From NCBI GenBank assembly GCA_010093815.1, contig ML996571.1: a stretch of 20,000 nucleotides of DNA. One strand, 5' to 3'. The position numbers and the translations under genes were made by a program. Shown in pieces: positions 1 through 20,000 of this stretch (its first letter is position 1; the number at the start of each line of letters is the position of its first letter). Source of the stretch: Pseudovirgaria hyperparasitica (lineage: Eukaryota). The notes beneath the pieces are model-generated. The model had not been told where the DNA came from, made no database searches, and worked only from the letters and a program-made list of their open reading frames with translations.

Positions 1-264
1 GATAGTGCCTTCCTCGAGGGTAGAGTTAAATAGAGAGAATTCCTTTAATAATTCTTCACGTAGCGTGGCCTACTACTATTTCTAAAACCTACTTATTCCT
101 TTAATAGTAGGACGGAGATAGTCCTTATAGTATAACGGTAGGGAGGTTATCTTCTTATTAGACGGAACTTCGTAGTTTATATATATGTTCTCGTACTTCC
201 GAAGGAAGGCCGTAATGTTTATTCCTTTAAAGCGCTTAGGGGCTAGGGTAGGTAGAGGTACCAT
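1..264 (-). pseudogene. RIP-inactivated gag-like ORF (N-terminus) of an LTR retrotransposon, runs off the left edge
   Basis: ORF 82-264 (MVPLPTLAPKRFKGINITAFLRKYENIY...) resembles fungal retroelement gag N-termini (F.G.N.T.FL..YE). The frame continues past RIP-type TAG stops as K***ATLREELLKEFSLFNSTLEEGTI to position 1. It lies downstream of a putative LTR. Confidence 0.65.
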
Positions 265-966
265 GCTTCCTTATCGCGCAAATGCTACAAAGAAGTTAAG
301 CATCTCTCTACGAGTTACTAGGTCGTTATTTTAAGCTTCTATCGCACTATTACTAGTAGTAGGTATACTAGTAGAGACGCTAGGGGTAAGGTTATTAGTT
401 AAGGGATTACCTTAACTAAAGGTTGGCCCAATGCGTCTACCTATAACATCTATCATCCCTTCTCTATATTAACTAATCCCTTTATAAGGTGAACTATTAC
501 TATCGTCTTCATCGATATAAGGTTTACGGTATTCTACTTATATTATTATCTTCGTGTGAGGCGTTCCTAAAGTAGTATACTTATATGGCCGTATTTATAA
601 ATGATAGCTATAGTAGCACTAAATAGGTTATATTTGTCGTTTTTAAACTCTTCTTTGCTGCTTTATCTAGCCCTATTTTATATCCTATTCCCCTAAGACA
701 TTTTCGAGTCGCACTATCACCCGTGTTAGCATGCGTATACTTTTTATAGCTACTTTTAAGAGGCTAGCCCCTAGCGACTCCGGACTCCCTGTTTTCCGGA
801 CTCGTGGCTTCGATCTAGTAAGTCTAGACTACCTTATTAGGCACGCTATATACTTCCCCTAAGCTAGTTTCGGAGTCCTAATCTCCCTCTATAAGTTTAT
901 AGTCCGGGTACGACCTCTAAAATTATAGTAAGCTATTGCTACGTGTATCCCTTTTATAAATAGCTA

Positions 967-1411
967 TGTTCCTAGTATAGTAGTCGACGACGAACTCACA
1001 AGTATCTCTCCCAGGTATTATGAGTTCTCTTTGAACGCACGACTTCTTATTAGTTCTCTTTTACGATAGGACGGGTCTATATAATACTCTTAATCAATTC
1101 TTCAATAGCTAAGCCTAATAATCAATACCCATAGAGGCCCATGAACGTAAGGAAAGGTTAAATAGTCGAATATTAGTGATGGGGGAAGCGCGCCGAGCAG
1201 AATGACCAAGGAAAACGCCCTCCTTAAATATACAATGAAGCCATGTAATCGAGCTAGGGACACATACATGTGGGGCTGTAGGAGCGGCCTTCCATAATAG
1301 TTAGTAATTAAACGTGTCCTAGAACATAGTAATAGTATAATACTCCTTAGCCTTAGATAGAATATAGATGGTATACCCAAAGTAAAACGAAATATAAAAC
1401 AGCGACTAACA
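967..1411 (-). mobile_element. Putative 5' LTR (~445 bp) of the minus-strand retrotransposon
   Basis: Bounded by TGTT (967-970) and AACA (1408-1411). On the minus strand it is followed by TAGCTA, a possible RIPed TGG- primer-binding site, then a leader and the gag ORF. The partner LTR is not in the window, so boundaries are inferred. Confidence 0.5.
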
Positions 1412-1769
1412 TATAATAGTATAGACGGCTATATATAGGTTACGCTTAAATAAATCCGTCTCTCTATCTCTAATACTATACTTACTATAACTAGTATAAT
1501 AATAGTAATAGAAAGCTACCGCCTATAACGGTAGAGATACCCACGAAGATAGTATTATAGGTAGTAGATAGTATTACCTAAACGACTCGACCCTTCCTCT
1601 AGTAATACTATATATACTACTATCGGCACTTAGAAAGCCGTAAGACTAATCTATAAACTCTAAAGATAGTAACTTTAAAAGTCTTAGAAGCACCTTAGAT
1701 ATAGAGGATATAGATCTCGATTATAAAGAGTAATAGAATAATAAAAAGAGTGCTAGGGGTAGTAAGAGT

Positions 1770-1965
1770 AGCGCGTGTATTTAGCTAAGGTAATATAATA
1801 CTAATATAAGACGGGTTCTATCTATAGTATATTAGTATATGCCCGATTCTACTAGCTATATAACCGTGGCGCGCATGTTTAATCAAGATATTAACATACC
1901 GGCATAAGCCGGCGTCTACCTGTTTTATATTAGTATACGCCCGGTTCTACTAGCTATATTATTAC
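1770..1965. repeat. Two imperfect ~98-bp direct repeats upstream of the helicase gene
   Basis: GCGCG...TATATTAGTATA.GCCCG.TTCTACTAGCTATA occurs twice. TTCTACTAGCTATA starts at 1847 and 1945. Confidence 0.75.
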
Positions 1966-2135
1966 TATGATTATATTCGTATAAGATCTATACTAATAAT
2001 TAAATATTTACTTATATACTTTACTTTCTCTATACTTTATAAAATTATATTATAATTAGTAAACGTGGTAACTTAACCTCTACTACCTAAATATAGCTTT
2101 TAACTCTTATTACTACTAACTCCGTCTTATTACTC

Positions 2136-5100
2136 ATGACCTAAGTCGTATATAGAAATATATAAGTATAGCGACAGTCACGACCGTCCTAGCTTAACTA
2201 CTAGCTATAGAATAGCTAACTATAATATATACGTACGACGTACGGAGGCCTTAAGCGTTAGCGCCTTTCTACCATATATCTAGTATCTCTAAGGCCTACA
2301 CTAACTACCTAAAATAAGTTATAGTATATATAGGGATACTATTATTAAGATAGCACGCGGAAAAGTATTATAAGAGCTTAAAAATAGTAGTATAGATACT
2401 ACTATACTTATTAGAATAGTTAAGGAAACCATTACTAAAGAATTTAATTAGTATATTACGGCTATAGATAGTAAGTTAGTACCGATAGTTATAGCTATAG
2501 ATATAACGGAGGCTAAACTAGATATAGATATACTAGCTATAGATACCTAGTTATAGTCGCTATTAGAATATAAAGAGAAAGAGAATATAGAAGATACTAA
2601 AATAGAAGACGACGTAATAAGTATACTTAGACATATATATATACTTAGTACTAGATACTAATATTAGAGTAGTATCGAAGATAGGTACGGCCATGCTCGC
2701 CGACTTAGATAATCTCTCTATAAGTACTATCGTGCCTAGTAAAGCTTATATACGCGTAAACATACTAGCTATAGATATATAGTTATAGTTACTATCGGAA
2801 CATAAAGAGAAAGTAGTTATAGAAGATACTAAAATGGAAGATAACGTAATAAGTATACTTAAATATATATATATACTTAGTACTAGATACTAACATTAGA
2901 GTAGTATCGAAGATAGATGCGGCTATACTCGCCGACTTAGATAATCCCTCTACGAGTACCGTTATACCTAGTAAAGCTTATACACGCGTAAATATACTAG
3001 CTATAGATATATAGTTATAGTTACCGTCAGAATATAAAGAGAAAGAGAATAGAGAAGATACTAAAATAGAAGACGATATAATAAGTATACTTAGACATAT
3101 ATATATACTCGGTACTAGATACTAATATTAGAGTAGTATTAAAGATAGATATAGCTATAATTACTAACTTAGATAATTATATAACGGATGCCGTTATGCC
3201 TCTAGATACTAGCGAAGCTTACCTATAGTTACTAGTAGTAAAGAGGATACTCTTAAATAATATAGTAAACCCCATAGATTCTTCTAAACGCTTAAAACTA
3301 GAATATAGTATACTACTAGATATCGACTGGCGGATACTTAAGTACTAGAATCTAATCGAGTTAATAGACGATTTATATAGTAGAAATATATTAGATATAT
3401 TAGATAATACATTAGTAGACGATATTATCTTTATTATCTATTCTCTAGGTAACGAGCCTAACAAAGACGAAGTAAAACCAGATATAGATAACGATCTTCT
3501 AGTAGATAATAACCTTAGTATAAAACTTTAGGAAGTATAAGTTATACTAAGTAGCGAGTAGGAATATATACTACTATACTAATATATCTATAGAGTATTT
3601 ACCGTTAATAACTCTAATAAAGTAATCTAAGCTATCTCTTATTATACGGAAGAGATATAGTTACTTACTATAAGTATATTTAGGCTCGCGCTAGATAATC
3701 TAACGAAGGACTTTGGCTATACACCTATTCTATATCTAGCCTTTAGTATAAGTAGGTTATATAGACTATAGGCCGGCCAATTACTCGCGGTAGTTACTAT
3801 GTTTAAGTAGCGGGCGGGTCTATAAAACTACTAGATCTTAGTAGATAGTCTAGGGCTAGAGAAGACTATTATACTTATAACGTTTATCTACCTCGCATTC
3901 TATTAGGACTTTCTACGCGATAATATAGAACTATACCTAGAAAAGTATCTACTATCGACTTAAGACCTAGGTATAGATAGAAAGTACCTAATATAATCTC
4001 TATATCTAATTAAATATCCGTGTAGCTAGACTAATAAATTTAGCAAGGTGCCCCGTCTTCAAGGACCATTTATACTATACTATCTAAGGAACCTCCTAGT
4101 ATTATATTAGCCATAGCACTTTAACTAGATATACTATAATACGGATAGTATGTTCACTAATAAAATTAATAAACGGAACCTAATAAAGATAGTAGTATGG
4201 TTAGTATACTTAAAAACCCTTCTTAACGCCCCTAATATCTAATAACTCTTGTCTATAGACGTATACTATCTAGCTAAGAGGTGCCCTAACCCCGAATAGG
4301 AACACCGTAACGATATTAGTAATCCTATAAAATATAAGACCGGCAAGAAGTATATTACTAAGGAGTAGTTGATTTACGTTAATAAGACTACTACTATTAA
4401 ATTCCCGTTATAATACGTAAAGAATAATATAGTCTATACTACCGTCTAAAGTATAGAGACCTAATATATTATAAACTTTACTAGACGCGTGGTTCTAAAA
4501 GAGAAGAAGGCAAAAAAATTTAGCGCTAATATTATTTAAACTTATAACATGGTATTCATTAGTATATTTATAGTAGATAAGTTCTATACCTTAAAAAAAC
4601 CTATAATAAAATAGTATAGGTATACGTAACTTAATCCCTTTATATTTAGTATATAGATTAGTATAACGCCCCTCTTAAATAGTCTATTAGATATTCTATT
4701 AGCTATTGAAACGGGTATCCCGGATTGGTTATCTAACTACGTTAATAATAATACTACTAAATTGGTATTTAAGAGTATATAGAAGGGATCTATAAGAAAG
4801 ATAGTTATAACATGGTCGAATAAACTCCTCTCTTAAATAAAAAACAAGCCGGCGGAGACGATAGCTAGTATAGTTAGTATAGTATTAGAAACTATAGACG
4901 GTAAGCGTACACTATATATAGTAGTTAATTAGTATTTACTATTCGTCCTATAAAGGGGATAACTAAGTAAGTAGTTTAATAGAAAGAACTATCTATCTAT
5001 AATAGTAACCCTAGTAGTAGATATTATATATATTACCGCTATAGATATAGAGAAGCGGGTCGTATAGTTATATAAGGATAAAGGCCAAAGGCTCCTTAAA

Positions 5101-6100
5101 TAAGCTATTACCTAGGGTAAATTAAATAGGCTCGGGTATAACACGTACTACTATAAGGCTAGGCTAGCTACTACGTATATACTACTTATATACCTTACCG
5201 ATAAAAGGATAAGTAAGGAATATATTAAAATTAGGCTTATACGTCCGTTAATAGATAATAATAGTATACTAGATAGAGTAATTATTAATCCCATGCGCGA
5301 ATTGCTTCCCTAGCTAGATAATAGTATATAAAAGGATATAATCTTACTAGCTTTAAAAGGAGTCGCTTCGAAGGCAAACTAGCTCCGTAAGCTTATTAAT
5401 GAAAAGGTTTATAATAAAAATACTAAACGCGCGCGTTAAACGTTTACTAACTAACTAGAGAAAATTATAATTGCATCTACTATACTAGTAACCGTAATAT
5501 TCCTATATATGGTAAGTATTTACATTAGTACTTACTAGTAACATGATTTACTAATATATATATAGGCACTACGTTTATACGTAAAATCGAAAATATTAGT
5601 ATATTTACCGGCTGGCCTAAGTACGTCTAGTATAAATAAGGTATACTAAGATTTTAGGTTAAATAAGTTAGATTCTCCGTGTATTTTACTAGCCTTAGCT
5701 TCGTAAGTCTATAAGGGATAAGATCTAATAGTTACCGGTTATATTATATTAGTAGACTAATGCCTACGTAAGGAGACGTGGCCGTAGATAAGTATAAGAT
5801 ATTATTACCATAGATAATATTAGCCTATAGTATATGTATATACTTTAGTTTTAGACTATTTAGAGGTTAAGAGTAGACTTACCGCGTTAGGCTAGGTAAT
5901 TAAAAGCATAAGGAAATAAGCCTTAGACCTAGGAAAAGAAGATATAGCTATGGTAGCAACGACTATACCTAATATACTAGTATTAGGCGTATACTTTAGT
6001 AATCCCATAGAGATATAGAAGTAAGTAAGGTAGTAGGTTAAGTAGCTTCTAAGAGACTAGATAGTATAGTAGTATAAATATAAACCGCTATTTACTTATA
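2136..6100 (+). pseudogene. RIP-inactivated SNF2/Swi2-family (SF2) helicase/ATPase gene, spliced; ends approximate
   Basis: Motif I at 3835-3867 reads ILVDSLGLEKT (de-RIPed ILADGPGLGKT). Motif II at 4576-4587 reads DKFY (DEFH). Motif III at 4660-4671 reads SITP (SATP). Motif IV-like EKIIIAS at ~5458. GTAAGT intron 5512-5565. Motif V-like G*DL at ~5716. Motif VI at 5785-5817 reads *ISIRYYYHR* (QISARCHRHGQ). Order and spacing match SNF2 ATPases. Confidence 0.85.
2529..3200 (+). repeat. Three tandem copies of a 232-bp unit in the helicase N-terminal region
   Basis: TACTAGCTATAGATA starts at 2531, 2763 and 2995. GAAGATACTAAAAT starts at 2590, 2822 and 3054. Period is exactly 232. Confidence 0.95.
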
Positions 6101-6147
6101 AATATATATCTATATATATCTATATGTAAAGAGAAATAAGATATTTA

Positions 6148-6361
6148 TTCTATGCTAGTATATAGTAGAACGTTACTATATATGCCAGTATATAACGGGA
6201 TATTCTAACATACGCCGGTATATTATAGGATATTCCTAGATACTTAAAATATAGTTATAATATAAAGTAGTATCACTATTATATACCGGCATATAGTAGA
6301 ACGTTACTATATATACCGGTATATAACGGGATGTTCTAACATGCGCTAGTATATAACGGGA
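6148..6361. repeat. Degenerate ~28-bp tandem array with a ~131-bp higher-order duplication
   Basis: Repeated (AT)GCCGGTATATAACGGGA-like units. TATAGTAGAACGTTACTATATA starts at 6161 and 6292. Confidence 0.8.
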
Positions 6362-6394
6362 TTAAACGTTTTCTTAACGTTTAATAGAATGATT

Positions 6395-6560
6395 CTAGAA
6401 GAATAGGGACGGCTCTAGGAGAACTAGGATAACTCCGGGAGGACTAAGATAACTTAAGAAGTACCGGGACAACTCCGGGAGGAATGGGACAACTCTAGAA
6501 GTACCGGGACCTATTTAGGATAACTTTAGGAGTACCGGAAGACCTAGAAGTACTAGGAGC
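6395..6560. repeat. ~20-bp minisatellite (about 8 degenerate copies), relatively GC-rich
   Basis: Units resemble CTCCGGGAGGACCGGGACAA / CTCTAGAAGTACCGGGACAA. Confidence 0.8.
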
Positions 6561-6729
6561 GCCGTATCTTTTCTAATGAAGGTAGAATTAGTATTCCTAA
6601 AGTATATCTATATAACTAAGGTATATGAGTAGAGGATTAATATACTATATATCCTTAGTTATAGTATAGAGAATTAAATAGCCCTATTACTCTCTAGAGG
6701 TAGGGTATTAATATATAAATACTACTATT

Positions 6730-8989
6730 ATATAGATAGAAACTTAGAAGAAACGGGAAAATACTTATAGATAGGTATGAATAGCGATTTTATTAAAGGT
6801 TCTCTACTATCTACTAATAAATTCTTTGGTATATTTAAGAAGATACTTATTTCGTATTATAAAGTTTATATCCTAATTAGATTATATTCGATTCTATTAG
6901 CTTAATAACTCTTCTCTAGATATATTATAATTAAGGGCTTATTTCTTTTATTTCGGCTGGCTAGATATAGTATATTTCCTAGAAATATTAATAAAGATAG
7001 TAAGGTATCTATAAGCAACGTATACAGAGATAAACTAGTTAAATACTTAGAAAAATTAAGCTTAAGCTATAATAGACTATAGACTTATAACTAACTCTTA
7101 AGAGTTACTATTAATCTAATATATTAATCTACCTATATAGTATATCCCATTTACTCTAAGATTATATCTCTACTTAGTTAGTCTAGATATAATATACTAT
7201 ACTCTACTTACCCTACTTAGTAAGGAGTAGTAGTAGATCTAGAGTTATAGTATAAAAGCTAAGACTCCGCCTTACCTTTATTAGAAAATATAGTTACTCT
7301 TATAGAGGACCTAGTAGCTAAGAGAGAGACTATTTCTAGAGAATTAAAAATTCTATTCTTAAGATATTACCTTAAACCTTTTAATACCTCTTTTCTTAGT
7401 ATATTACCTCTAGTCTATACGGCTAGGTATATTAGTTCTACTAATAATTCTTCTAGATCTTAACGGAATATCTAGGGAAGATCTATATCTATCCTATAGT
7501 ATTATATCTAATCTTTAGAATATAGTCCTTAATATAGAGCTTAAGGAATAGCTATAGAATATAGATAAGCTTATTTAATCTTTAAATTATAATTATATAT
7601 AAAATCCCAAGTAAAACGGTCTAGATCCCTATTATTCTAATAAATTTAGATATCTCTATAAGGCCGCTAAGGGTATACTTACCCTAAGTATACTAAAAGA
7701 ATACTAAGGGTAGTTTAATTAATTTACTAATATATAATTCTACGTCTAACGGTTATCTAGATAATATATAAAGTTTATTTACTTCGTTAAGAAGAAGTAT
7801 CTATACTATAGAGACTCTATATAGACGCCTATAATATATATACCTTAGCTTATTTCCTCTTAGATTAACTACTAATATAGAAAATCTAAAAAGGATAGTA
7901 ACTTCTAGCTTTTATAAGAAAGAAAGGATAGTTTCTAGTTATATATAATAAAAATACGTGCTACTATATCTTACTACTACTTATATATTATCTACTAAGG
8001 AGAGGGTTTGTTTATTTAGAAGACTAATAGTACTTTCTTAGGAAATCTAATTTATAGTAACCTTATAGCCTATACTATAAAGGTACTATACTAGATAAAG
8101 GTACGTGGTAGAGAGGTATAGAAGAGTATATAGTCTATAATATCGTTTTATCTAAAGAGTCTCTATAAGTATAATATAAATATTAAGACCTTAGACTATT
8201 CTATCTAAAACCTAGATAGTAAGGAAGGAAGAGTTTAGGCTAGTACGTAATAACGTATAATAATATACCTTTTATATATAATTACCTTTTAATATCTTCT
8301 TAGAATTAACGAAGCTTTACGTATTAAAGTTTAATATATCCGAATTTATAATATAAAGTCTAGAAAGGTTAAGATCTTACTTAACTTTCGGAAGTCGGCC
8401 TAGATAGATAGTATATTTCCTATAATATCTAATATCCATACTCTAAAAGAACATATATATAAATATTAAACTATTCTTCCTCTACTTTAATCGAATAGAG
8501 CTATAGCTTAATATTCTAACTCTACTCCTTAAGTAGCTATACTAATTAAAGATCCGTAATAGATTCCTTTTTTACGGTTTTACTATATATAATTAACTAA
8601 AGCTTAATAAAGCTAAATACCTTATACGTATATCTATAGACGTATATTCGGTGCCTAGTTACTAACCTATTATTATTACCTAGTCTACGTCTTTATTTCT
8701 TTAGAACTTCCGATAGAACCTTATAGATATCTAGCTTAAAAGTAGTCTCTATAGTAGCTACTTGTTTTAATAAGACGGGGTTTAATTTCTTTCTAGTAAA
8801 AAGTACTAGAATCTTTAAAAAATATACGACTAGGGAGGATAGAGTATAGATAGTAAGTATTTTATAGTACTTTGGTATCTCTTTAGCGTAAATAACAACT
8901 CTATTTACCTACGGGAGGTATTTATAAATCCCTATATTACTATAGCTATTTGATATGGTTATTATAGTCGAAGTTATTAATACTTATAG
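6730..8989 (+). pseudogene. RIP-inactivated tyrosine recombinase (YR) gene with introns; 5' end approximate
   Basis: 8281-8322 reads ITF*YLLRINEALR (IAFQCLLRIDEALR; catalytic R at 8302). 8386-8403 reads FRKSA* (FRKSAQ). 8750-8785 reads YSSYLF**DGV* (YGSHSFRRGGVQ, the HxxR motif). 8831-8845 reads *GG*S (WGGWS). Candidate nucleophile Tyr at 8876-8878. C-terminus de-RIPs to RCGHCGRSCQCS* ending at 8989. Introns with CTAAC branch sites at ~7710-7760 and ~8624-8683, plus one starting at 8411. Confidence 0.85.
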
Positions 8990-9019
8990 TTATATTAGAA
9001 TACTTATTATTATTTAAGA

Positions 9020-11140
9020 TCCATACTATCATGCTCCCGAAACTAGGAAAGAGCTCTAACTCCCTAAAGGGATAGAGACCAATCGCCCTTCTCTCCTACC
9101 TAGATAAGATACTAGAGGCCATGATAGCGAAGAAGATAAGTACCGCGGTATAGGAATACAATCTCCTCCCTCCGAACCAGAAGGCAAAGGTAGATAGCTC
9201 CCTAATAATAGCTATCTAATATATTATCGAAGTCGTCTAGGCCGCATAGAAATAGGGACGGGTAGTATCGCTCCTCTCCCTCGATATAGCCGGAGCGTTT
9301 AATAAGGTAAACCATATAAGACTTATTTATAACCTCTAGATAAGACGAATACTAGAATAGATTATATACTTTATATAGTCATTCCTTACAGGAAGAATAA
9401 CTTAGATATATATCCCTAGGTACTAGAGTAAATATAAAGAGACGGTATACGGCATCCTATAAGGGAGTACCATCTCTCTAATCCTATTCCTCTTCTTTAC
9501 GGTAGACCTTCTTTAAGGAATAAAGTATATAGAGATAGTCGGATACGCTAATAATATATACCTTCTAGCTATTAATAATAATACTAACCGAACATATAGA
9601 TAACTAGAATAGAATAATAAGAGGTACCTCTAGTAGGTAAAACGCCACGGAGTAAAGTTCGCCCTAGAGAAATACTAGCTCATACACTTCATTAATTATT
9701 AAGGGAAATAGGTAACTAGGGAAGGCGAACGACGCCCCCGAATCGACGTATTTAATAAACTACTAGTATAAAGTATACGCGCGCTCGGAGTCATACTAGA
9801 TAGTAAGCTTAAATAGGGACTATAAGTAGTATACGCCGTCTCTAGGGCCCTCTAGGTAGAAGCTACTATATAATGGATTATAGTCTCCACGTAGGGAACC
9901 GCCCGGGATAAGGCACGCTAGCTATATATATCTATAGTACGACCCGCCTTTACGTACGGACACGAGTGCTAGTACACGGCCCTTATATAGACTAGGCGAA
10001 TAAAGCTCGAATCCATATAGAACCGCATACTCCGTCTTATATTAGGCGTATATAAAGCTACTAATACGGTGCTACTACGACGCGAGATAGACGTTATAAG
10101 TATATATAACTTCTACTAGACATAGAGGGTAGTATACTTCACTAAATAATAAGTATAGGAACGTATAGGAAACGTAGAATATACTTTCGCCGCACTACGT
10201 GCACGAATTAGTATATATTACCGCGCACTCCTATATATAGGCTAGAATTAAATATGGTATAGATACTTAATAGAAGCCGACTCTAGCTAAGTAGTATAAG
10301 AAGTCCAAGATAACCCGGACGCTCTTCTAGACTAGTAGAGCCTTTAAGAACTCGTGAAAAATATACGGTCGTAGACTTAAGATAAGTAGAAAGAGATACT
10401 CTATGCCCACTAGACCTTCTAGTAGAATAGGTACCTAGAGTAGATTCAAGGGCCATAGAAGAAACTAAGTAAATAGATATATAAAGGGCTAACGAAAGCC
10501 TAAGTATCTATACTTATCTAAGCCCGAACGGGCGCCATAGAACTTCTATACTATATCTATAAGAGAGACGTTCCCGATACCTCTCTATAGTATAAGGCGT
10601 GCGGCCGGAGAGGTATAATACGCTACTATCTAGCTATATACCCTAACCTCTATATATAATGGTAATGGCTTATCTACGTTACGAAGACTTTAGATATTAT
10701 ATAATAGCTTAATAAGTACCCTAAGGACGTCTCCCGATAGATACTTATATATCTACTACTTCTCTAGTACTAGTGGACCTAGAAATATATGCCGGAAGAG
10801 ACCCGGTATACGCTAGTAGTAACCCGATATATACCGGAAGAACCCTAGGAGAACCCCGATTATTAGTCGAGGGCAGCCCTTAACTAATAACCTCCGCACC
10901 TATACGTGCTACCTAAGGGTAAAATAACGGTAATATAGGCTATAGGCTAATAGGCGTACCCTATAGCTATATACTTAAGATAAAATAGAGGTTTAACGAG
11001 ATATAGTTATAGATATAAGGAAGTTTTTTCCCTATAGGGTTTCTTCTTATATAGTGGCTTAGACTAGAGGAGGCATAGGCCTATAGAGTACTACTCTACC
11101 TAGTTATATAATATTATTATTATTATTATTATTATTATTT
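9020..11140 (+). mobile_element. 5'-truncated Tad1-like LINE (RT domain to 3' UTR), RIPed, with (TTA)n tail
   Basis: Begins in RT at TIMLPKLGKS...*RPIALLSYLDKILEA (WRPIALLSCLGKILEA). SLDIAGAF at ~9280. GIL*GSTISLILF (GIPQGSTISPILF) at ~9451. YANN (YADD) at 9544-9555. (TTA)n tail at ~11114-11140. TSD-like TTATTATTATTTAAGA at 9004-9019 and 11129-11144. Confidence 0.9.
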
Positions 11141-11289
11141 AAGACTTTACTTAAGCTTTCCGTTTTATATATACTCTAGTATATATTTCTCTAATAATAA
11201 AACGAGTGTACTTTTTTAGTATTTATAGGAAACCATTAATATTATACTAGGATATAGAAAATACCTCTTTATATATAGCTATATTTAGA

Positions 11290-11750
11290 TAGATGTTTCT
11301 AAATATATAACTTAAATAAATTAATATAGAATAAGAATATATTAAAATATAGTTATAAATAATAGAATATTCTAAGTATAAATTAATATATAGAAAGAAA
11401 AAGCTAATATATAGCTATATATAATAGAATATATTAAAGTAGACATTATTATATTAGAAAGAATATATTACTAGATAGATATATGTAATAGTATATATCT
11501 AAGTAGAAGTTACTATATAATAAGAATAGATTAATATATAGCTATATATAGTAGTATATATCTAAGTATAAGTTAATATATAATAAGATTAGATTAATAT
11601 ATAGAAAGAATATATTAATATATAGCTATATATAATAGTATATATCTAAGTATAAGTTACTATATAAATAAGAATAAGTTAATATATAACTATATATACT
11701 AGTATTATACTAAGTATAAGTTACTATATAGCTATATATACTAGTATAAA
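11290..11750. repeat. Extremely AT-rich hierarchical minisatellite (~21-bp subunits, ~63-bp blocks)
   Basis: GTATATATCTAAGTA starts at 11491, 11554 and 11638, with a variant at 11702 (spacings 63, 84, 64). Confidence 0.8.
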
Positions 11751-12139
11751 TTAGGGTTAAGGTTTACTATAGCTTATTATGTTTTTATCGGAATATTAGA
11801 GATCCAAATATATTTAGCTTAGAAAAAACGATAAACTATACTAAGTTTAGTAGCTACTATATACTACTAGGTATCTTAGGAATCTAGATAAATAGTTCTT
11901 AGAAACTTACTAATATTAAGAAAAAACCGCCCCGAATCTAACTAGGTATAATAATAATAATATTATATAACTAGGTAGAGTAGTTTACTCTATAGGTATA
12001 TACCTCCTCTAGTCTAAGCTATTATATAAGAAGAAACCTTTATAAAAGGAAAAACTTCCTTCTCTCTATAACTATATCTCGTTAAGCCTTCGCGTTATTT
12101 TAAGTATATAGCTATTAGGGATACCTATAGGCCTATAGC

Positions 12140-15100
12140 CTATAGTACTATTATTTTACCCTTAGGTAGTACGTGTAGAGTACGTGGGTTATTAGTTAAG
12201 GGCTACCCTTAACTAATAATTAGGGTTCTCCTAGGGTTCTTCCGGTATATACTAGGGCTTATCTAGTATATACCTAGCTTCTTCCGGTATATATATCTAG
12301 GTCTACTAGTACTAAGGAAGTAGGAAGTATATAAGTATCTACTAGGCGGTCTTCTTAGGGTACTCGTTAAGCTAGCGTGTAATATTAGAGGTCTTTATTA
12401 CGTAGATAAGTATTTATCTTAGTGTATAGAGGTCCGTATATATCGTAAGGTAGTATTATATTATACCTCTTTGGCCGTATACTTTATACTATAGAGACGT
12501 GTTAGGGACGCCCCTCTAGTATAGATAGTATAGAAGTTCTATAGCTCCCGTTTAGGCCTAGAGGAGGATAGATATCTAGGCTTTCGTAAGCCCCTTATAT
12601 ATCTATTTACTTAGTTCCTTCTATGGTCCTTAAATCTACTCTAGGTATCTATTCTATTAAGATATCTAGTAGGTCCGGAGAGCCTCTCTCTATTTATCCT
12701 AGGTCTATATCTTTATAGCCCGTATAAGCTCTTAAGGGTCCTACTAGTCTAGTATAATAAACCTTCTCTAATAAGGATGCGGCTTATCCCTAGAGTAGTC
12801 CGTTCCATAGAGTGTCCCGGCTTTCCTAAAGGTAAAGGTACTTAGAAGGCTTAGAGGAGTATAAGTAGGTTTATAGTAAGTATTAATAGGGTATAAATGG
12901 TAACTAGCTAGTAGGCGAGTGAAGTAGTAATTATATCGGTATAAGTTTAAATTAATTACTATAGAACTATCTCTAGAGATCGGGTCTAAAGGGTCTATAT
13001 AGTTCTACTAAGGTCCTCTAATTAGAATGCTTATTCTAAGCGTTTAGTACGTTACTTAGAATACCGATATTCTATTCCTAATTACCTAGTAGACTACTTA
13101 GAATACCTATTCTAAGTATCTATGATTGGCTCTCCCCATAGGTGTCTATCTTGGCCTTGGGTTACTACCTAAGGCTACCTATTATATCATAGGCACCTCT
13201 TCTACATGCTATGCTATTTCTTACGCTACTTATGCTAGAGTCTACGTATCCCTCTATGGCTCTAGCTAGTAATTTATTACATCTAGAAAGGCGTCTAGAT
13301 TATCCTCTATCTCCTACATAACCTAATTTAAGTCTATCTCTATTGGGCACCTATATTGTATCTAGGTTTAGTCTATATATAGTAGCGCTTAATAGTAGGT
13401 ACTAACTCATGCGCGTAGTACGGTAAAGGTATATTCTACATGTCCCCCGCGTTCCTATACTTATTATTTAGTAAAGTATATTACCCTCTATATCTAGTAG
13501 AAGTCTTATATACTTATTACGTTAGTCTCGCGTTATAGTAGCCCTATATTAGTAGCTTTATATATACTAGATATAAGGCGGAGTATACGGTTCTATATAG
13601 ACTTAACCTTTATTTATCTAGTCTATATAAGGGCCGTATACTAGTACTTGTATCCGTACGTAAAGGCGGGTCGTACTATAGAGATATATAGCTAGCGCGC
13701 CTTATCCTAGGCGGTTCTCTACGTAGAGGCCGTAATCTAGTATATAGTAGCTTCTACCTTAAGGGCCCTAGATATAGTATATATAATCTATAGGCCCTAT
13801 TTAAGTTTCTTATCGATTATAACGCTAAGTATATATATACTCTATATTAGCGGTTCGGCGAAAGCGTCTATTCTAGAATATCGCTCTCCTTCCTTAGTAG
13901 CCTATCTTCTATAGCGGTTAATAAAGTATATAAGTTAGTATTTCTTAGAGGTAAACTTTACTCCGTAGCGCTTTACCCACTAGATATATCTCTTATAGTC
14001 TTATTTAAGGCGTTTATATATTAAACTAGTATTATTATTAATGGCTAGAAGGTATATATTATCGGCGTATCCTACTACCTCTATATATTATATTCTCTAT
14101 AGAAGGTCTACGGTAAAGAAGAGGAAGAGAATTAGAGAGATAGTACTTTCTTATAGGATACTATATATTATTCTCTTATATTTACTTTAGTATCTAGGGA
14201 TATATATCTAGGTAATTCTTTTAATAAGAAAGAACTATATAAACTTCGTAATCTATTTAGGTATACGTCTCCTCTATAAGTTATAGATAAGTCTTATATA
14301 GTTTACCTTATTAAATACGCCGGCTATATTAAGAGAGAGTAATATTACTACGCGTCCCTACTTCTATATAGTCTAGATAACTTTAAGAATATATTAGATA
14401 GTAGTAATTAGGGAGCTCCCGGTCTTCGTCTTCTAGTTTACTAGAAGGAGATTATATTCTCGTGCTACGGTACTTATTTTCTTTGCGACCGTGGCCTTAA
14501 GTATCTTACTAAGATAGAAGAGAAGGGCGATTAGTCTCTATCCTTTTAGTAAGTTAGAGCTCTTCCCTAGCTTCGGGAGTATAATATTATAGGCTATCTA
14601 GAAGCTTTAGGGGTGGTATCTATTCTTAGTATATATCTAGAAGATAAGACTAATAAGTAGTAAGGTTACCTATATAGTATGTTTAAGGCATCTATTTAGT
14701 ATTCTATCTAGTCTAGGCGCTTTATCGTTTAGGAGTACTTTAATAGCGTTAAGTATATTCTCTTCCGTAATCTCTATAGAGATATTAACCACGTCTAGAT
14801 ATATAGTACCGTTAATATTAGATAGGTCTACTAGCTCTAGGGGGGGAAATATAACTTCTTAGAGGATCTCTATCTTTTCGGGGCTCATAGTATATATTCT
14901 CCCCTAGTATATTAGGGGAGGCATTAGTAGTAGTAGCGTTGGCGCGTCCACGCTCTTAGCCTACTTTACTATATACTATAGCTCTACGGCTTATCGTGTG
15001 TATTTATTGGTAATTATATACTAGTATTTATATCATTTATTATGGAGGGCCCTATTATAAGATCGGATTATCTCTTTCTATTTCTTCTATACCTTAGCTA

Positions 15101-16049
15101 TCCGGATATAGTATATACGTATATATAGTCTCTAGACTTCCCGTCTACTTTTATATATTTAAGATATACCCCTTACGTCTAGGGGCTTATACGTTTAGTA
15201 TAGTATATATTTATCTCTTAAGTCTTAGAAGGCTTAAAGAAGGACTTATACGGCTCTATCTATGGCCGGGCCGTTAGATACGTCGACTATAGAGAGGTCT
15301 AGGATTACCGATCCTAGGTTCTCCCTATACTTCTCCTAGTTAGTATCTTTCTAGAGCTATCTCCCCTATTATTTATTAGACGTAGATACGTCTATCGCGG
15401 TCTCTATATACTTATAGTTAGAGTCTATCTATGTCTTACTAGGGTAGTAGTATTATACTCTATAGCTTATATATTCCGTGGCAAGGATAAGGTTAAGTAT
15501 AGATCTCTCCTCGTTCTATTTATATTTCCTCTACGTAATCTATCCGACTAGTATAAGGAGGTATAGAAGGTCTTAGTATCTTATATATAGTTCTCTTACC
15601 CTAAGCTCTTCTCTAATAACTATCGGACCTCTCTACTATCTATAGTAGAGGTTAAAGTCGCCTAGAAGGATATATTATTCTAGTACCGTAATGCCCTCTA
15701 GCATAGCGTCCGGTATAAGTAATTCTCTTTAGTTATAGATATTATAGATATAGAGGGGCCCTATATTTATCTAGAGATATAGTATTATCTAGAGGTTATC
15801 TTAGTCTATATAGGACTATTCTAAGAGCGGGATTAATTTATATATATAGAATAGGACTCTCCTACCTAGGCCTAGGGAGTAGATAGTATAGTATTCTAGG
15901 TGTATCGTGGGTTTATTGGTTTAGTAGTATTTATATAGCTCCTAGATAGCTATTATTACGGTATCTATCTCTTCTAGAAGCGTGGCCTAGTTTTCTTATT
16001 TATATTATACGTTTGCCTATATAATAATAAGTATATCTTAGCTCCTTAT
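12140..16049 (-). pseudogene. LINE ORF2 (APE endonuclease + reverse transcriptase), RIPed and interrupted by a solo LTR; 3' end approximate
   Basis: N-terminus reads III*ANV...IIAI*ELY (IVQANV...IAIQEP), the APE signature. RT motifs mirror copy 1, including GYADN at ~14060-14075. The de-RIPed start overlaps the ORF1 stop (ATGA). Confidence 0.85.
12753..13281. mobile_element. Solo LTR (529 bp) inserted in LINE ORF2
   Basis: Termini TATAATAAA (RIPed TGTAATAAA) and TTTATTACA form a 9-bp inverted repeat. A 5-bp TSD TCTAG sits at 12748-12752 and 13282-13286. The segment is absent from the homologous site in the 9020-11140 LINE (~10330). Confidence 0.9.
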
Positions 16050-16431
16050 TAGGTACTAGGGAATGCTCGAGCCTATATACTAGTGGCGTTAAGGCGTAAC
16101 TATCCCTACGCGGTAGCTGCCTTAAGAATACCCTAGGGTCGCTCTATCTTTCTCTATATGGTATACTATTACGTGTTAGTCCCGCCTCCTTATAGATTAG
16201 TTAGTATAGTTACGGGTAAGGTTAGAGTAGGTAGTAGAGGCCTCGTAGCTTAGTATATCTACCTCGCCTCTCTTACCTTTATAGTATTAATATACTTAGT
16301 AACTTATCTATATTTTATACACGTCGCTAACTATAATAGATAGTTTCTATTATAGTTAGAGTACTTAGTAGTGTCTTTATTACGTGTATAGTCTTCCTAT
16401 CCTTTATATAGGTATTTCTAGATACGGTAGT
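16046..16431 (-). pseudogene. LINE ORF1 (gag-like) C-terminal part with CCHC zinc knuckle
   Basis: Reads KYSNYNRNYLL*LATC (KCSNCDGNHPSWSATC) at ~16320-16367 and ends ...AFPST** (STQ*) overlapping the ORF2 start. Confidence 0.75.
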
Positions 16432-16645
16432 TGTTAGGACTTAGCCTTAGGTAGAACCTAACCTATACGTACCTTAGCTAACAGGGTTAGAAGGTGACGT
16501 GAAGGGCGGTAAATAGTTACGTGCTAGATAGATTAGCGTCTCTTTATATATATACTCTCGGATTTCTACCGAAAGGGTTTAGTAGTAATTCGTTCTATAA
16601 TAGAATATACTCTATTATTCTATCTAACTATACTACTATCTAATA
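16432..16645 (+). repeat. Putative 5' LTR of the gypsy element (3' boundary tentative)
   Basis: TGTTAG start. CTAATA ending at 16645 could be a RIPed CTAACA, the inverted terminus. Gag begins about 50 bp later. Confidence 0.45.
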
Positions 16646-16693
16646 ACCCTATTCTTATATTCGAATTACTCTCTATATAGTACTATAGTTAAG

Positions 16694-18007
16694 ATAGTCT
16701 AACTAGAACCGAGAAGGTCGATACGATCTACTATAGGGATAAGTAATACTATATTAAATAATAGGGATTCTCTATAATTAGTATTAATCCTAGCCGTTTC
16801 TAACCGAGAAGTAGAAATATTAGACTAAATCACGGAGCTTTTAGATAAAGAAATGGTAGATATACTAAGTAACTTCTAATAATATAAAGTCGGATAATAA
16901 GTCGTGGCGGAGCTACGTAAGGTATTATAATAAACCATCGCCGAACTTTAGAAATACGTCGCGAATTAGGCTTAAGAGATTTAAACTCTTAAAGAATAGA
17001 TAGAACGCGCGAAACTCCTTATAAAGAGACGAGAACTTAAGGAGTCTCTTAAAGAACTACGCCGAACGATAGTAGGTAGACGACTTCCTATACTAATTTA
17101 GGCGGAATTAGTTTATCTACCATTAGAGTTATAATAATCCACCGTATACCCGGCCGCTTCGTTACCGATTTACTCTACTTCTTCCCTAGATATACTAAAA
17201 TCTAAAGACCTAACTATATTTATAGGGAAGAACTAAAAGGAGTAGAAAGACTAGAAGAGAGACTACGAAAAGTACTTCCTCGATAACCCTCTACTCTTTT
17301 CTACTAAAGTATAACGCATTTCGTTTAGAGAACGATACCTAGACTTATAATCCCGCAATTAATAGAATAGATAGAAGGAAGTATAGCTACTATCTACAAT
17401 AACCTAGGAACATTTAGCTATATTTATACTAAACACCCTCGGAACGGATAGAGAATATAAAAGAAAGGTACTATCTAAGTTAAGAAGCGTGGTATAACGA
17501 CCGAACTAGACACCTACTTAACTACTATAATACCTATAAAACCTATAGAATAATATCCCTACGCTATAGAAAAATATTTATATATTCTAGTTTCGCGAAG
17601 TACTACTTCCGTTAATCCGCGAAAGACTAGAAATAGTATTATTAAGTTTTAACTATCTATATAAATTAGAGGAGAAAGCTAATAAATACTACCGTATCCT
17701 TAAGAAACGCGGCTCTCTAGGTAAAACCGATAAACCCTATACGGGTTAGAAATGAGGTCGATCGAATACGTTCGATTAAGAGTAACCTTACCGTAATTAG
17801 CGCTAGAAGAGTATAAATCGGGGTAGAAAGGCGTTAAGAGGATACTAAAATAATTAAGGTAGTACTTCTTAACGTAGAAAAGGATAAGGCATAGGCTTAA
17901 ATATAACGTCTATTATAAAATAGTAGGATTATAGTATACTTTATTACTATAAGTATAGAGAAATAGGATATATTTCACCTAACTATAAGAATCCGAAAAA
18001 AGAATAG
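16694..18007 (+). pseudogene. gag: Gypsy gag, RIPed
   Basis: One frame from ATA (de-RIPed ATG) at 16694 through a coiled-coil-like region. CCHC knuckle at 17945-17986 reads YYKYREIGYISPNY (CYKCGEIGHISPNC). Ends KNPKKE* at 18007. Confidence 0.8.
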
Positions 18008-20000
18008 GCTAGTATATAAGACCTAACCATATTCTTAGCTAAATTATATATACTTAGAAGGAGCTATAGCGCCTTCTGGCGAGTAAAGACCTAATATTAC
18101 TAAAAGTATTATTACCTATAGTAAATAGTAATAAAACTATATAGGCCCTCGTAGACACTAGTATAGAAGATAACTATATTTTATTAATTCTTATAAAGGA
18201 GTATAGATTATTATACGATTTTAGTAAAGTTAGCCGAACTATTATAGTTAATAGATATAAAGTTAGAACTTTAGGTAAAGCTATAACGAATTATGAAGTT
18301 CATGACTTAAAGATAATAAAATAGTAGATATCTAATAAATTCATCGTGGCTAATATTAGCTAATAGAATATAATTCTAGGGATGCCTTAGCTTAGACGCC
18401 TAAACCCTATTCTTGATTTTTAGAAGGAGATATTAATATTCCGACGATACTATAGTAAATTATACTAGTAAATTATAACTATTAGTAAGGAGGCATAGAA
18501 CCTTACTATGTGGACCCGATTATTACTAATCTATTTTATATTCTTATTAATTATTAATAAAGACGAGGATAATAGTAATAATTAGGGCGAAGACACGCTA
18601 TCTAATATATATTCATAGTATACGGATGTGTTTTCGGTAGGAGATATATTACTTCTCCCTAATCACGGGCTATATAAGCTAAAGATCGAGCTCGAAGAGG
18701 GAGTAGACGTCCCTTATAGCCTACTTTACCTACTTTTAAGACTAGAACTTAAAGTTCTTCGTAAATATATTAAAGAATACCTTAGAAGAGGCTAGATATA
18801 TCATAGTACGTTATCGGCTAGTATATCTATTCTCTTCGTAAAGAAGAAAGACGGAAGTTTATATCTATATATCGACTATTAGGTACTAAATATAGTAACT
18901 AAGAAGAATCGTTATCTATTACCGCTAGTTAGTAAATCTTTAGACTAATTAATAAAGGTAAAGTACTTTATAAAGCTAGATTTATAAGATATATATTACT
19001 AGCTTCGAATTCGTCGCGGAGATAAGTAGAAAACCGCATTTCGGACTAGATATAGTTATTTTAAGTATACTATTATACTATTCGGGCTAATAAATATACT
19101 AGGAGCGTTTTAAGAATATATTAACACTATACTTATAGGATTACTTAACGTGATTTACGTAGTTTATCTCAATAATATACTAATTTACTCTAATAGTATA
19201 TAGAATTATAAAGAACACGTGAAATTAGTACTAAATCATCTAAGGTAGTATAAACTCTACGTAAAATTATCTAAATACGAGTTTTACTAATAAGAAGTTA
19301 GATTTCTCGGCTTTATTATAATATATAGCGGTCTAAAAATAGAGCCGGAGCGTGTAAAGACTATTATAGAATAGCTAGAACCTACTACTATATATTAAAT
19401 TAGAATATTTATAGGTTTCGTAAACTATTATTATAAATTTATTATAGACTTCTTACGAATTACGGCGCCACTTAATAAACTTATAGAGAATAGCGGTAAA
19501 ATCCCTATAGGTAGGTAAGTATAGCGTAAAGCTAAGTCGGTTAAGATATAGTTAATGCCGGAAGCGTAAGATACGTTCCGATTATTAAAGAATTACTTTA
19601 TAACTACGCCGATTCTTAGGTATTTTAATTCCGAGAAGTATATTTAGGTTAAAACTAATGCGTTAGAATTTATAATTACTAGAATTATTAGTTAACTATA
19701 TAAAGATATAAAAGATAAGGTATAATAGTACCCGGTCGCTTTCTTTTCCTATAAAATAGTAGATATAGAGACGCGTTATAACACGCACGACTAGAAACTA
19801 CTTATAATCGTTAAGAGTTTTAAGTAATAGCGATATTATTTAGAAGGCTCTATATATTAGATTGAATTATTATCGGATTACGTAAATCTATATTACTTTA
19901 TATCGACTAAGGTCCTTAATTACCGATAAGTACGTTAGGCTAAGTAGATATTAATATTTAACTTTAAAATCTTATATAAAGCTAGAAGAGAGAATAAAGC
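18001..20000 (+). pseudogene. pol: Gypsy pol (aspartic protease, RT, RNase H), RIPed, partial; -1 frame relative to gag
   Basis: ALVDTSIEDNYI (ALVDTGAEDNYI) at 18145. IILGMP*L at 18370. FVKKKDGSLYLYIDY*VLN at ~18835. YLNN (YLDD) at 19165-19176. VKTNALEFII (VETDASEFAI) at ~19648. YNTHD*KLLIIVKSFK**RYYLEG at ~19777. Confidence 0.92.

Follow-up and report, generated by a model that had tools for sequence, protein, structure and literature searches.

Recombinase locus

The DNA analysed here is a stretch of 20,000 nucleotides (nt) of contig ML996571.1 of Pseudovirgaria hyperparasitica (GenBank assembly GCA_010093815.1), referred to throughout as the window. At about 7600-8989 of its plus strand lies a pseudogene that was made by repeat-induced point mutation (RIP) and is without function. 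The predicted gene comprised three exons for about 450 amino acids (aa) and belongs, as judged from family profiles and a modelled fold, to a family of tyrosine recombinases resembling the Cre protein of phage P1. The features of the locus, including a retrotransposon that follows the gene, are summarized in Table 1.

Table 1. Features of the recombinase locus and its downstream neighbour (HMM, columns of the hidden Markov model of the recombinase family; P0147, closest named relative)
Feature	Position (nt)	Strand	Remarks
Exon A	7600..8409	+	codon starts = 1 mod 3; RIP-aware path HMM 45-302; P0147 residues 64-297 = nt 7654-8409
Candidate intron 1	8410..8461	+	52 nt; alignment gap at HMM 302/303; frame 1 to frame 2
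Exon B	8462 to about 8620-8626	+	codon starts = 2 mod 3; HMM 303-356; P0147 residues 298-352
Candidate intron 2	~8627..8683	+	about 57-63 nt; alignment gap at HMM 356/357
Exon C	8684..8989	+	HMM 357-456 on RIP-aware path (8684-8983); hmmsearch 8687-8944; P0147 residues 353-451 = nt 8687-8983
5'-truncated non-LTR (LINE-type) retrotransposon	9020..11128	+	RVT_1, (ATT)n tail, second copy in window
Possible 16-nt target-site duplication TTATTATTATTTAAGA	9004..9019; right copy 11129-11144		repeat search

The GC content of the window ranges from 0.20 to 0.39, and all of its 1-kb bins show TpA/ApT ratios of 1.4-2.0 and (CA+TG)/(AC+GT) ratios of 0.06-0.43. Only two open reading frames (ORFs) of at least 60 aa are present, both upstream of nt 1381, and there are none in 1381-20000. 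Within 7600-8990, 4 CA and 8 TG dinucleotides (12 together) stand against 292 TA, and 29 CG are left. Depletion of CA/TG with an excess of TA is the CpA-directed pattern of RIP in Pezizomycotina. Two DNA sequencing runs, both from a single study, contain this DNA; they may underlie the source assembly and lend no independent support.

Detection of the recombinase gene

When stop codons were read as X, translations of 6001-9300 in both strands gave no Pfam match for the recombinase region, and neither did the other Pfam scans made in this way, of 2701-6300 and 1-2700 (plus strand) and of 2701-6000 (minus strand). A phmmer search with the X-read frame against PDB gave 0 matches at E<=10, and a word-indexed protein search with the same frame retained none of 130 candidates at E<=10. 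Since there is neither an ORF of at least 60 aa nor a Pfam match on the X-read frames, the gene is hidden from ordinary annotation. It had been proposed in an earlier reading made from the sequence alone, as a tyrosine recombinase missed by the ORF list, and this proposal was confirmed by a family HMM and by scoring that takes RIP into account.

A phmmer search of the X-read frame of 7600-8700 against 1.84 billion representative proteins gave 16 matches at E<=1e-3 (best 3.4e-11), 15 of which belong to a single protein family; the remaining one, the HAMP-repeat chemoreceptor P0007, was rejected as a composition artefact. An HMM of this family (60 homologues, 457 columns) was searched over the whole window in six X-read frames and gave two collinear matches, one in plus frame 1 at nt 7945-8454 (HMM 144-318, 68.4 bits, independent E-value 1.5e-22) and one in plus frame 2 at nt 8687-8944 (HMM 358-443, 35.9 bits, independent E-value 1.1e-12); no third match was found anywhere in these frames. 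For RIP-aware scoring, a T was allowed to have been C and an A to have been G, with a higher weight in TpA context and a flat penalty for introns and frame changes. The score of the recombinase region against the family HMM rose from 143.9 bits (plain) to 286.6 bits, compared with 25-43 bits in 22 other 3-kb tiles (both strands), 27 bits for the reversed profile and at most 44 bits for ten column-permuted profiles. A chance match is thus excluded, and the RIP-aware scan found no second recombinase signal elsewhere in the window.

The homology is traceable only from about nt 7600-7654 (7600 on the HMM path, 7654 in the pairwise alignment with P0147), and a start at 6730, as placed originally, is unsupported. 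An upstream block at 7305-7343 added 0.3 bits and was dropped as weak.

Gene structure

Exon A encodes an N-terminal domain of core-binding type and, with R 8302 and K 8392, the first half of the catalytic domain. Support for it is weaker in 7600-7653 and becomes firm at 7654 in the pairwise alignment or at 7945 with the plain HMM. Exon B encodes the middle part of the catalytic domain. Exon C contains the H-x-x-R box (8759-8770), W (8840-8842), Y (8876-8878) and the tail C..CGR.C.C (8954-8983); its last codon (8984-8986) stands opposite residue 452 of P0147 and is followed by the stop codon TAG (8987-8989). The splice sites of candidate intron 1 are approximate, with GTATAT at 8411-8416 and a 3' TAA at 8460-8462. 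In candidate intron 2, GTATAT occurs twice (8628 and 8642), the branch box at 8660-8666 is a perfect TACTAAC, and CTAG lies at 8680-8683. As a pair, the two gaps show GTATAT, a branch box CTAAT or TACTAAC, and TAA or TAG.

Intron positions in relatives were surveyed with an aligner lacking a RIP model on 69 loci of up to 7 kb, from 80 metagenome loci that encode relatives and had been found using a three-sequence alignment. Jumps of 45-79 nt recur in these loci at HMM 79/80, 120/121, 196-198, 210-212, 302/303 and 356/357. At the site of intron 1 (HMM 301/302 to 304/305), 52 of the 58 spanning loci have a jump of 46-74 nt, and at the site of intron 2 (HMM 355/356 to 358/359) a jump of 49-79 nt is found in 58 of 63. 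Because the two gaps in the window coincide with HMM 302/303 and 356/357, they represent two of six conserved intron sites of the family; the introns noted in the sequence-only reading are these two gaps. The database proteins P0006, P0016, P0017 and P0161 read through the intron site at HMM 302/303, and P0161 also through that at 356/357; the resulting spurious inserts mean that part of the family's annotation in public collections is wrong.

Four relatives' loci (L001, L003, L010 and L021) have no introns where their nearest kin have them; for example, L001 is intronless, and its sister in the tree, L040, has introns at the two sites that the window copy retains. These intronless loci could be spliced transcripts within the data set or copies that have lost their introns.

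Catalytic residues and decay

All six catalytic positions proposed for the hidden protein (R-K-HxxR-W-Y) fall on the catalytic columns of the family. R 8302 (AGA), K 8392 (AAG) and the nucleophile Y 8876 (TAT) are intact; the H codon at 8759 reads TAC (Y), the R codon at 8768 is now TAA and the W codon at 8840 is now TAG, and each of the three altered codons can be brought back to the family residue by one or two C>T/G>A reversals. The proposed CxxCGRxCxC tail likewise lies at the family position, and this tail is a family trait in 106 of the 134 proteins that reach the C-terminus. It now reads Y-G-Y-Y-S-R-S-Y-stop-Y, with the stop codon one codon further on: the four Cys positions are TAT or TAC, the G is AGT, and the R is kept. 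Full-length P0010, P0015 and P0009 carry H-S-F-R-R-G-G, W-G-G-W-S and the terminal C..CGR.C.C, as had been reconstructed by eye, and the upstream motifs of that reconstruction agree with the family consensus 'AqKmRAamty' and 'GnPsvs..vstYmvsLrrrkvraGe.atsaraits'. At a guess, the four-Cys tail may serve metal binding or subunit contact.

The relic contains 38-39 in-frame stop codons, and opposite 24 of 38 of these the relative P0147 has W, R or Q. Among 405 codons aligned to the family-consensus residue, 106 are identical as read and 197 are reachable by undoing C>T/G>A, compared with 114 in the opposite direction and 65-72 in shifted pairings; of the strongly conserved family columns, 43 of 47 are reachable by RIP reversal. 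Since these counts exceed the opposite-direction and shifted controls, the divergence of the window copy is largely due to RIP, in the direction of RIP.

The recombinase family

The only labels of named family members are 'DNA breaking-rejoining enzyme' and 'Tyr recombinase domain-containing protein', and the family has no Pfam model of its own. Of 60 members scanned at E<=1, 23 touch PF00589 (best 1.2e-5) and two touch NDC10_II (E 0.0066); DUF3435, DUF3504 and GCR1_C are each touched by 0/60. The six members nearest the window (P0147, P0148, P0150, P0161, P0203 and P0009) have no significant Pfam match, and none to GCR1_C.

The fold was predicted for the relative P0010 with AlphaFold, using the family alignment (predicted local distance difference test score, pLDDT, 84.2; predicted TM-score, pTM, 0.76). 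A Foldseek search with this model gave 40 PDB matches at E<=1e-3, with Cre taking all top places (E 4e-9), followed by XerH, XerA, lambda Int and XerD. The family profile against PDB sequences gave 18 matches at E<=1, 17 of them Cre or Tre (best 6.9e-7), and in the profile-to-Cre alignment the R, E, H-x-x-R, W and Y positions line up. The catalytic residues are conserved in the members (R 238/266, K 262/266, H 219/223, R 202/223, W 216/218, Y 214/218). By these comparisons of modelled fold and profile, the family is one of predicted Cre-like tyrosine recombinases, and the identity first read from the motifs holds. Look-alikes by protein language model, which serve as leads only, are other eukaryotic recombinase families, with NDC10_II clusters first (0.97-0.98), one DUF3435 cluster at rank 4 and DUF3504 clusters lower-ranked.

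The model of P0010 shares the two-domain fold of Cre (PDB 1crx, 1ma7) over about 390-407 aligned columns, and LLR..E, H-S-x-R, GGW and the nucleophile Tyr are aligned between Cre and the family profile, with W rather than H at the sixth position. The two differ in that identity between Cre and the fungal family is about 16%, the fungal proteins have a longer N-terminus and a W-to-Y spacing of 12 residues instead of 9, the four-Cys motif at the C-terminus of the fungal proteins is lacking in Cre, and the fungal genes are eukaryotic and intron-bearing.

Relatives and distribution

P0147 and the metagenome proteins P0009, P0161, P0016 and P0017 stand nearest to the window copy and are of the same family. 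Among the best 120 of 357 matches to P0010, every named protein is from Agaricomycetes, in keeping with the expectation that the family is mostly basidiomycete. A profile of the matches nearest the window gave 232 proteins at E<=1e-5, including those of Emmonsia crescens (P0147), Cryoendolithus antarcticus (P0150) and Amoeboaphelidium (P0203), and the cluster of P0148 includes a protein of Elaphomyces granulatus; Emmonsia crescens, Cryoendolithus antarcticus and Elaphomyces granulatus are Pezizomycotina. Members of the family are frequent in mushrooms and scarce in ascomycetes.

The closest named relative is P0147 (GX50_09006, PGH15757.1), a hypothetical protein of [Emmonsia] crescens that is itself uncharacterised. 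In RIP-aware pairwise scoring of the window against 53 full-length members (median 180 bits), P0147 reached 404 bits (its controls at most 47), the Elaphomyces protein and P0148 245 bits, and the best Agaricomycete 227 bits. P0147 has the same length plan as the window copy, with an alignment from its residue 64 to its end, where a stop codon follows, and the same C..CGR.C.C tail; among the 388 codons in the alignment, 123 already agree as read, and the number within reach of C>T/G>A reversal is 249 (66-74 in shifted pairings). Unlike the window copy with its in-frame stops, P0147 is an open reading frame, and its first 63 residues are unmatched in the window. The Agaricomycete members (for example Mycena kentingensis P0010 and Lactarius P0015) have the family HMM, the catalytic residues, the Cys tail and intron sites in common with the window copy, and carry four further intron sites that it lacks.

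In a rapid maximum-likelihood tree of 71 rows, the window is found in a group of 10 rows (Shimodaira-Hasegawa-like approximate likelihood ratio, SH-aLRT, 93) with P0147 and unnamed metagenome proteins, outside a clade of 55 Agaricomycete rows (SH-aLRT 98). Distances coded as purine or pyrimidine, which are blind to transitions, were all 0.27-0.39 between the window and the 80 metagenome loci and singled out no close relative at the DNA level. Horizontal transfer had been raised as one explanation for the presence of the family in a RIP-competent genome; it found no support, with an ascomycete protein far ahead of any Agaricomycete in pairwise score and the window outside the Agaricomycete clade. 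A recent transfer from mushrooms is unsupported because the closest named relative is an ascomycete protein, and an old ascomycete branch of the family is the simpler reading, with the placement in the tree being tentative.

Type of element

The family is multicopy in Agaricomycetes: one cluster at 90% identity comprises four proteins of Mycena polygramma, three of M. vitilis and three of M. albidolilacea, on different contigs, and a second comprises five of Pisolithus orientalis. None of 131 ORFs of at least 140 aa in 18 long metagenome loci has a reverse transcriptase (RT), RNase H, methyltransferase or DDE transposase domain, and the kept introns argue against copying through RNA. With its multiple copies, the lack of an RT or DDE partner, the kept introns, the context in the window and the saturation with RIP, the family fits a Crypton-like reading in which the recombinase acts without a partner. 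We regard the relic, at a probability of about 0.7, as a RIP-made pseudogene of a Cre-like recombinase, with a small Crypton-like DNA element that encoded no other protein as its source. The family is probably mobile, as copy number, introns, gene neighbourhood and RIP context suggest.

Elements of this kind would transpose through conservative site-specific recombination, without an RNA step. The two domains of the enzyme would bind DNA, and Y 8876 would cleave it with the R-K-H-R-W pocket, as in Cre; such an element would be excised as a circle and reinserted at short matching sequences. Once repeated in a RIP-competent ascomycete genome, it would have been exposed to RIP, which would have turned CpA/TpG into TpA until the copy was dead, and the retrotransposon would have inserted later, 30 nt behind the dead recombinase.

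Several points weigh against this interpretation. Neither in the window nor in the relatives could ends of an element, terminal direct repeats or empty sites be found; Cryptons end in short direct repeats of 4-6 bp. In pairs of metagenome loci of 79-94% identity, similarity ends 8-104 nt past the stop codon in some and runs on for 200-1700 nt in others. The 20-kb window holds one copy, and we infer that this copy was itself repeated, rather than reached by RIP spreading from neighbouring repeats. The start codon and the first 45-63 residues of the recombinase were not found, and the phase of intron 2 fails to close with the best-looking splice signals, so that either a short 42-nt version was used or a 1-nt indel occurred. 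In the tree, the window row has a skewed composition and a very long branch (3.19), because of which its placement is tentative. The placement of the family among eukaryotic recombinases comes only from domain content, fold and language-model look-alikes.

The points that concern element boundaries also bear on an alternative in which the relic is a dead member of a host recombinase gene family (domesticated or cellular) and not of a transposon, with the multicopy state in mushrooms due to expansion of that gene family. This would suit those pairs (83-92% identical) in which similarity spans only from 27-29 nt before the start to 8-44 nt after the stop, the ordinary fungal genes (kinases, DWNN, UDPGP) that neighbour the gene in long loci, and the lack of termini. 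We consider it unlikely, given that several proteins of at least 90% identity lie on different contigs of one species, that the window copy is saturated with RIP amid LINE and Gypsy relics, which is the fate of repeats, that the ascomycete members lie on contigs of 1.8-1.9 kb (P0147 1891 nt, P0148 1790 nt), as is often so for collapsed repeats, and that the distribution across fungi is patchy.

It is slightly less probable still that the recombinase was one gene of a larger composite element (cargo-carrying or of two genes), the remainder of which would lie in 1-7600 or past the LINE insertions. The 6 kb upstream are without a recognisable domain and could hide genes wrecked by RIP, repeats stand close upstream at 6146-6510, and in relatives the vicinity of the recombinase gene shows a further recurrent unit of about 1.5 kb (L024 3356-4843 with L028 12585-14057). 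Against this, no second Pfam-bearing ORF recurs beside the gene in the 18 long loci, DUF3435 is absent from all 60 members scanned, and no further signal came up in the window with the RIP-aware family scan.

Two further observations were made on the relatives' loci. A second unit of about 0.7-1.5 kb (81-82% identical) is found near the recombinase genes of the two loci just named and at L008 3417-4107; its ORFs of about 200 aa are without a Pfam match, and its distance and orientation vary. The neighbours of recombinase genes on long contigs (L008 7111-8979, L062 6842-8320, L029 6066-6638) include fungal-type protein kinases and a protein with a Crinkler N-terminal domain.

Comparison with known elements and significance

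The known Crypton DNA transposons comprise the groups CryptonF, A, I and S (Kojima & Jurka 2011, PMC3212892), and Glomhopper/CryptonA is treated in PMC13465315; according to the passages of these two sources at hand, GCR1_C marks CryptonF and DUF3504 marks CryptonA, CryptonF recombinases are given as the source of NDC10_II, and separate origins are possible for the Crypton groups. The present family resembles Cryptons in being eukaryotic, with a recombinase as its presumed sole gene, with introns, without RT or DDE, in multiple copies and with no terminal inverted repeats seen; in addition, NDC10_II clusters lead the language-model look-alikes and two of the 60 members touch NDC10_II, as given above. 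It differs from CryptonF in the absence of GCR1_C (0/60 members, and none in the six nearest the window) and from CryptonA and CryptonI in the absence of a DUF3504-type domain (0/60). The same passages of PMC3212892 and PMC13465315 make no mention of a C..CGR.C.C tail for Cryptons.

Captains of Starships, each the leading gene of a very large element with cargo, differ in having DUF3435, and a non-Starship assignment, as made in the sequence-only reading, agrees with the absence of DUF3435 from 60/60 members at E<=1; the contigs that carry the relatives are short. In DIRS and Ngaro elements the recombinase forms one unit with RT/RNase H (and a methyltransferase in DIRS), with split or inverted repeats. 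The exclusion of this type, also made there, is borne out by the conserved spliceosomal introns and by the absence of RT/RNase H among the 131 ORFs of the relatives' loci.

Literature searches with the database names and motif strings of the family returned no description of it, though one under a Crypton name is possible; the portions of PMC3212892, PMC13465315, PMC3783388, PMC3411680 and PMC10799480 at hand do not mention it. The family, with hundreds of database proteins, is under-described and unnamed. Tentatively, and with somewhat less than even confidence, we suggest that the window copy is a fossil of a hitherto undescribed superfamily of recombinase transposons that are compact, intron-bearing and Cre-like and end in a C..CGR.C.C tail of metal-binding type, a superfamily to stand beside, and not within, CryptonF/A/I/S, DIRS/Ngaro and Starships; it would be recently active and multicopy in many mushroom genomes and would have an old ascomycete branch of its own (Eurotiomycetes, Dothideomycetes) that is continually eliminated by RIP.

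Eukaryotic elements with tyrosine recombinases are few and poorly understood, and the family could represent a new group of small DNA transposons; its ascomycete branch is invisible to ordinary annotation because RIP erases it. Its proteins, as Cre-like eukaryotic enzymes with a complete predicted catalytic set, could be tested as recombination tools. As regards the scanning of genomes, RIP-aware profile scoring doubled the signal of the relic with the background unraised. As a dead gene, the window copy is of no functional importance. The family as such is a lead of moderate interest.

Adjacent retrotransposon and other features of the window

The retrotransposon downstream is a long interspersed nuclear element (LINE) with RVT_1 at nt 9064-9711 (plus strand, E 8.4e-13, from model position 6) and a tail of (ATT)9 at 11112-11139; the length of its possible target-site duplication is uncertain because the tail of the LINE is itself (ATT)n. 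A second, inverted copy at 11948-14590 (minus strand) and beyond is 79.7% identical over 2101 nt, and the similarity stops exactly at 9023. The two copies stand tail to tail: the plus copy is 5'-truncated at the start of the RT domain, and the minus copy is longer, with an endonuclease-like 'GDFN' motif upstream of RT that was recognized by eye and has no Pfam match. The adjacent RT is a separately inserted LINE, 30 nt past the stop codon of the recombinase, and not a partner gene. The earlier statement that no RT/RNase H is linked to the recombinase was thus literally wrong, with RVT_1 at 9064, and stands in so far as this RT belongs to a separate LINE.

A recombinase of a DIRS/Ngaro-type retrotransposon with this RT as its own, as the start of RVT_1 on the same strand 75 nt past the recombinase stop might suggest, is very improbable in view of the abrupt start of the RT element within pol at 9020-9023, its (ATT)9 tail, possible target duplication and second copy with the same boundary, the endonuclease-type motif of the longer copy, the two kept introns that an element copied through RNA would lose, and the absence of RT from the 18 relatives' loci. 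X-read Pfam scans of 1-9000 (plus) and 2701-9300 (minus) found no RT, although RIP could mask one. A RIP context test on the LINE pair (316 transitions, 111 transversions) was uninformative because CpA is exhausted in both copies.

Between the tails of the two LINE copies, about 800 nt (11145-11947) of about 20% GC contain degenerate tandem repeats of 63, 84 and 127 nt, and should continue the DNA that hosted the recombinase copy. Just upstream of 6730, two 86-nt repeats (84% identical) that are 131 nt apart and a less AT-rich array of 20/40-nt tandem repeats (6401-6510) occupy 6146-6510. At 2528-3177 lie 2.8 head-to-tail copies of a 232-nt unit (85% matches), with no protein-domain match around them. 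At about 18838-19945 (plus strand), a RIP-damaged pol of a long-terminal-repeat (LTR) retrotransposon was predicted (RVT_1, E 1.2e-15; RT_RNaseH_2, 1.4e-13; RT_RNaseH, 1.5e-10), which runs off the end of the window.

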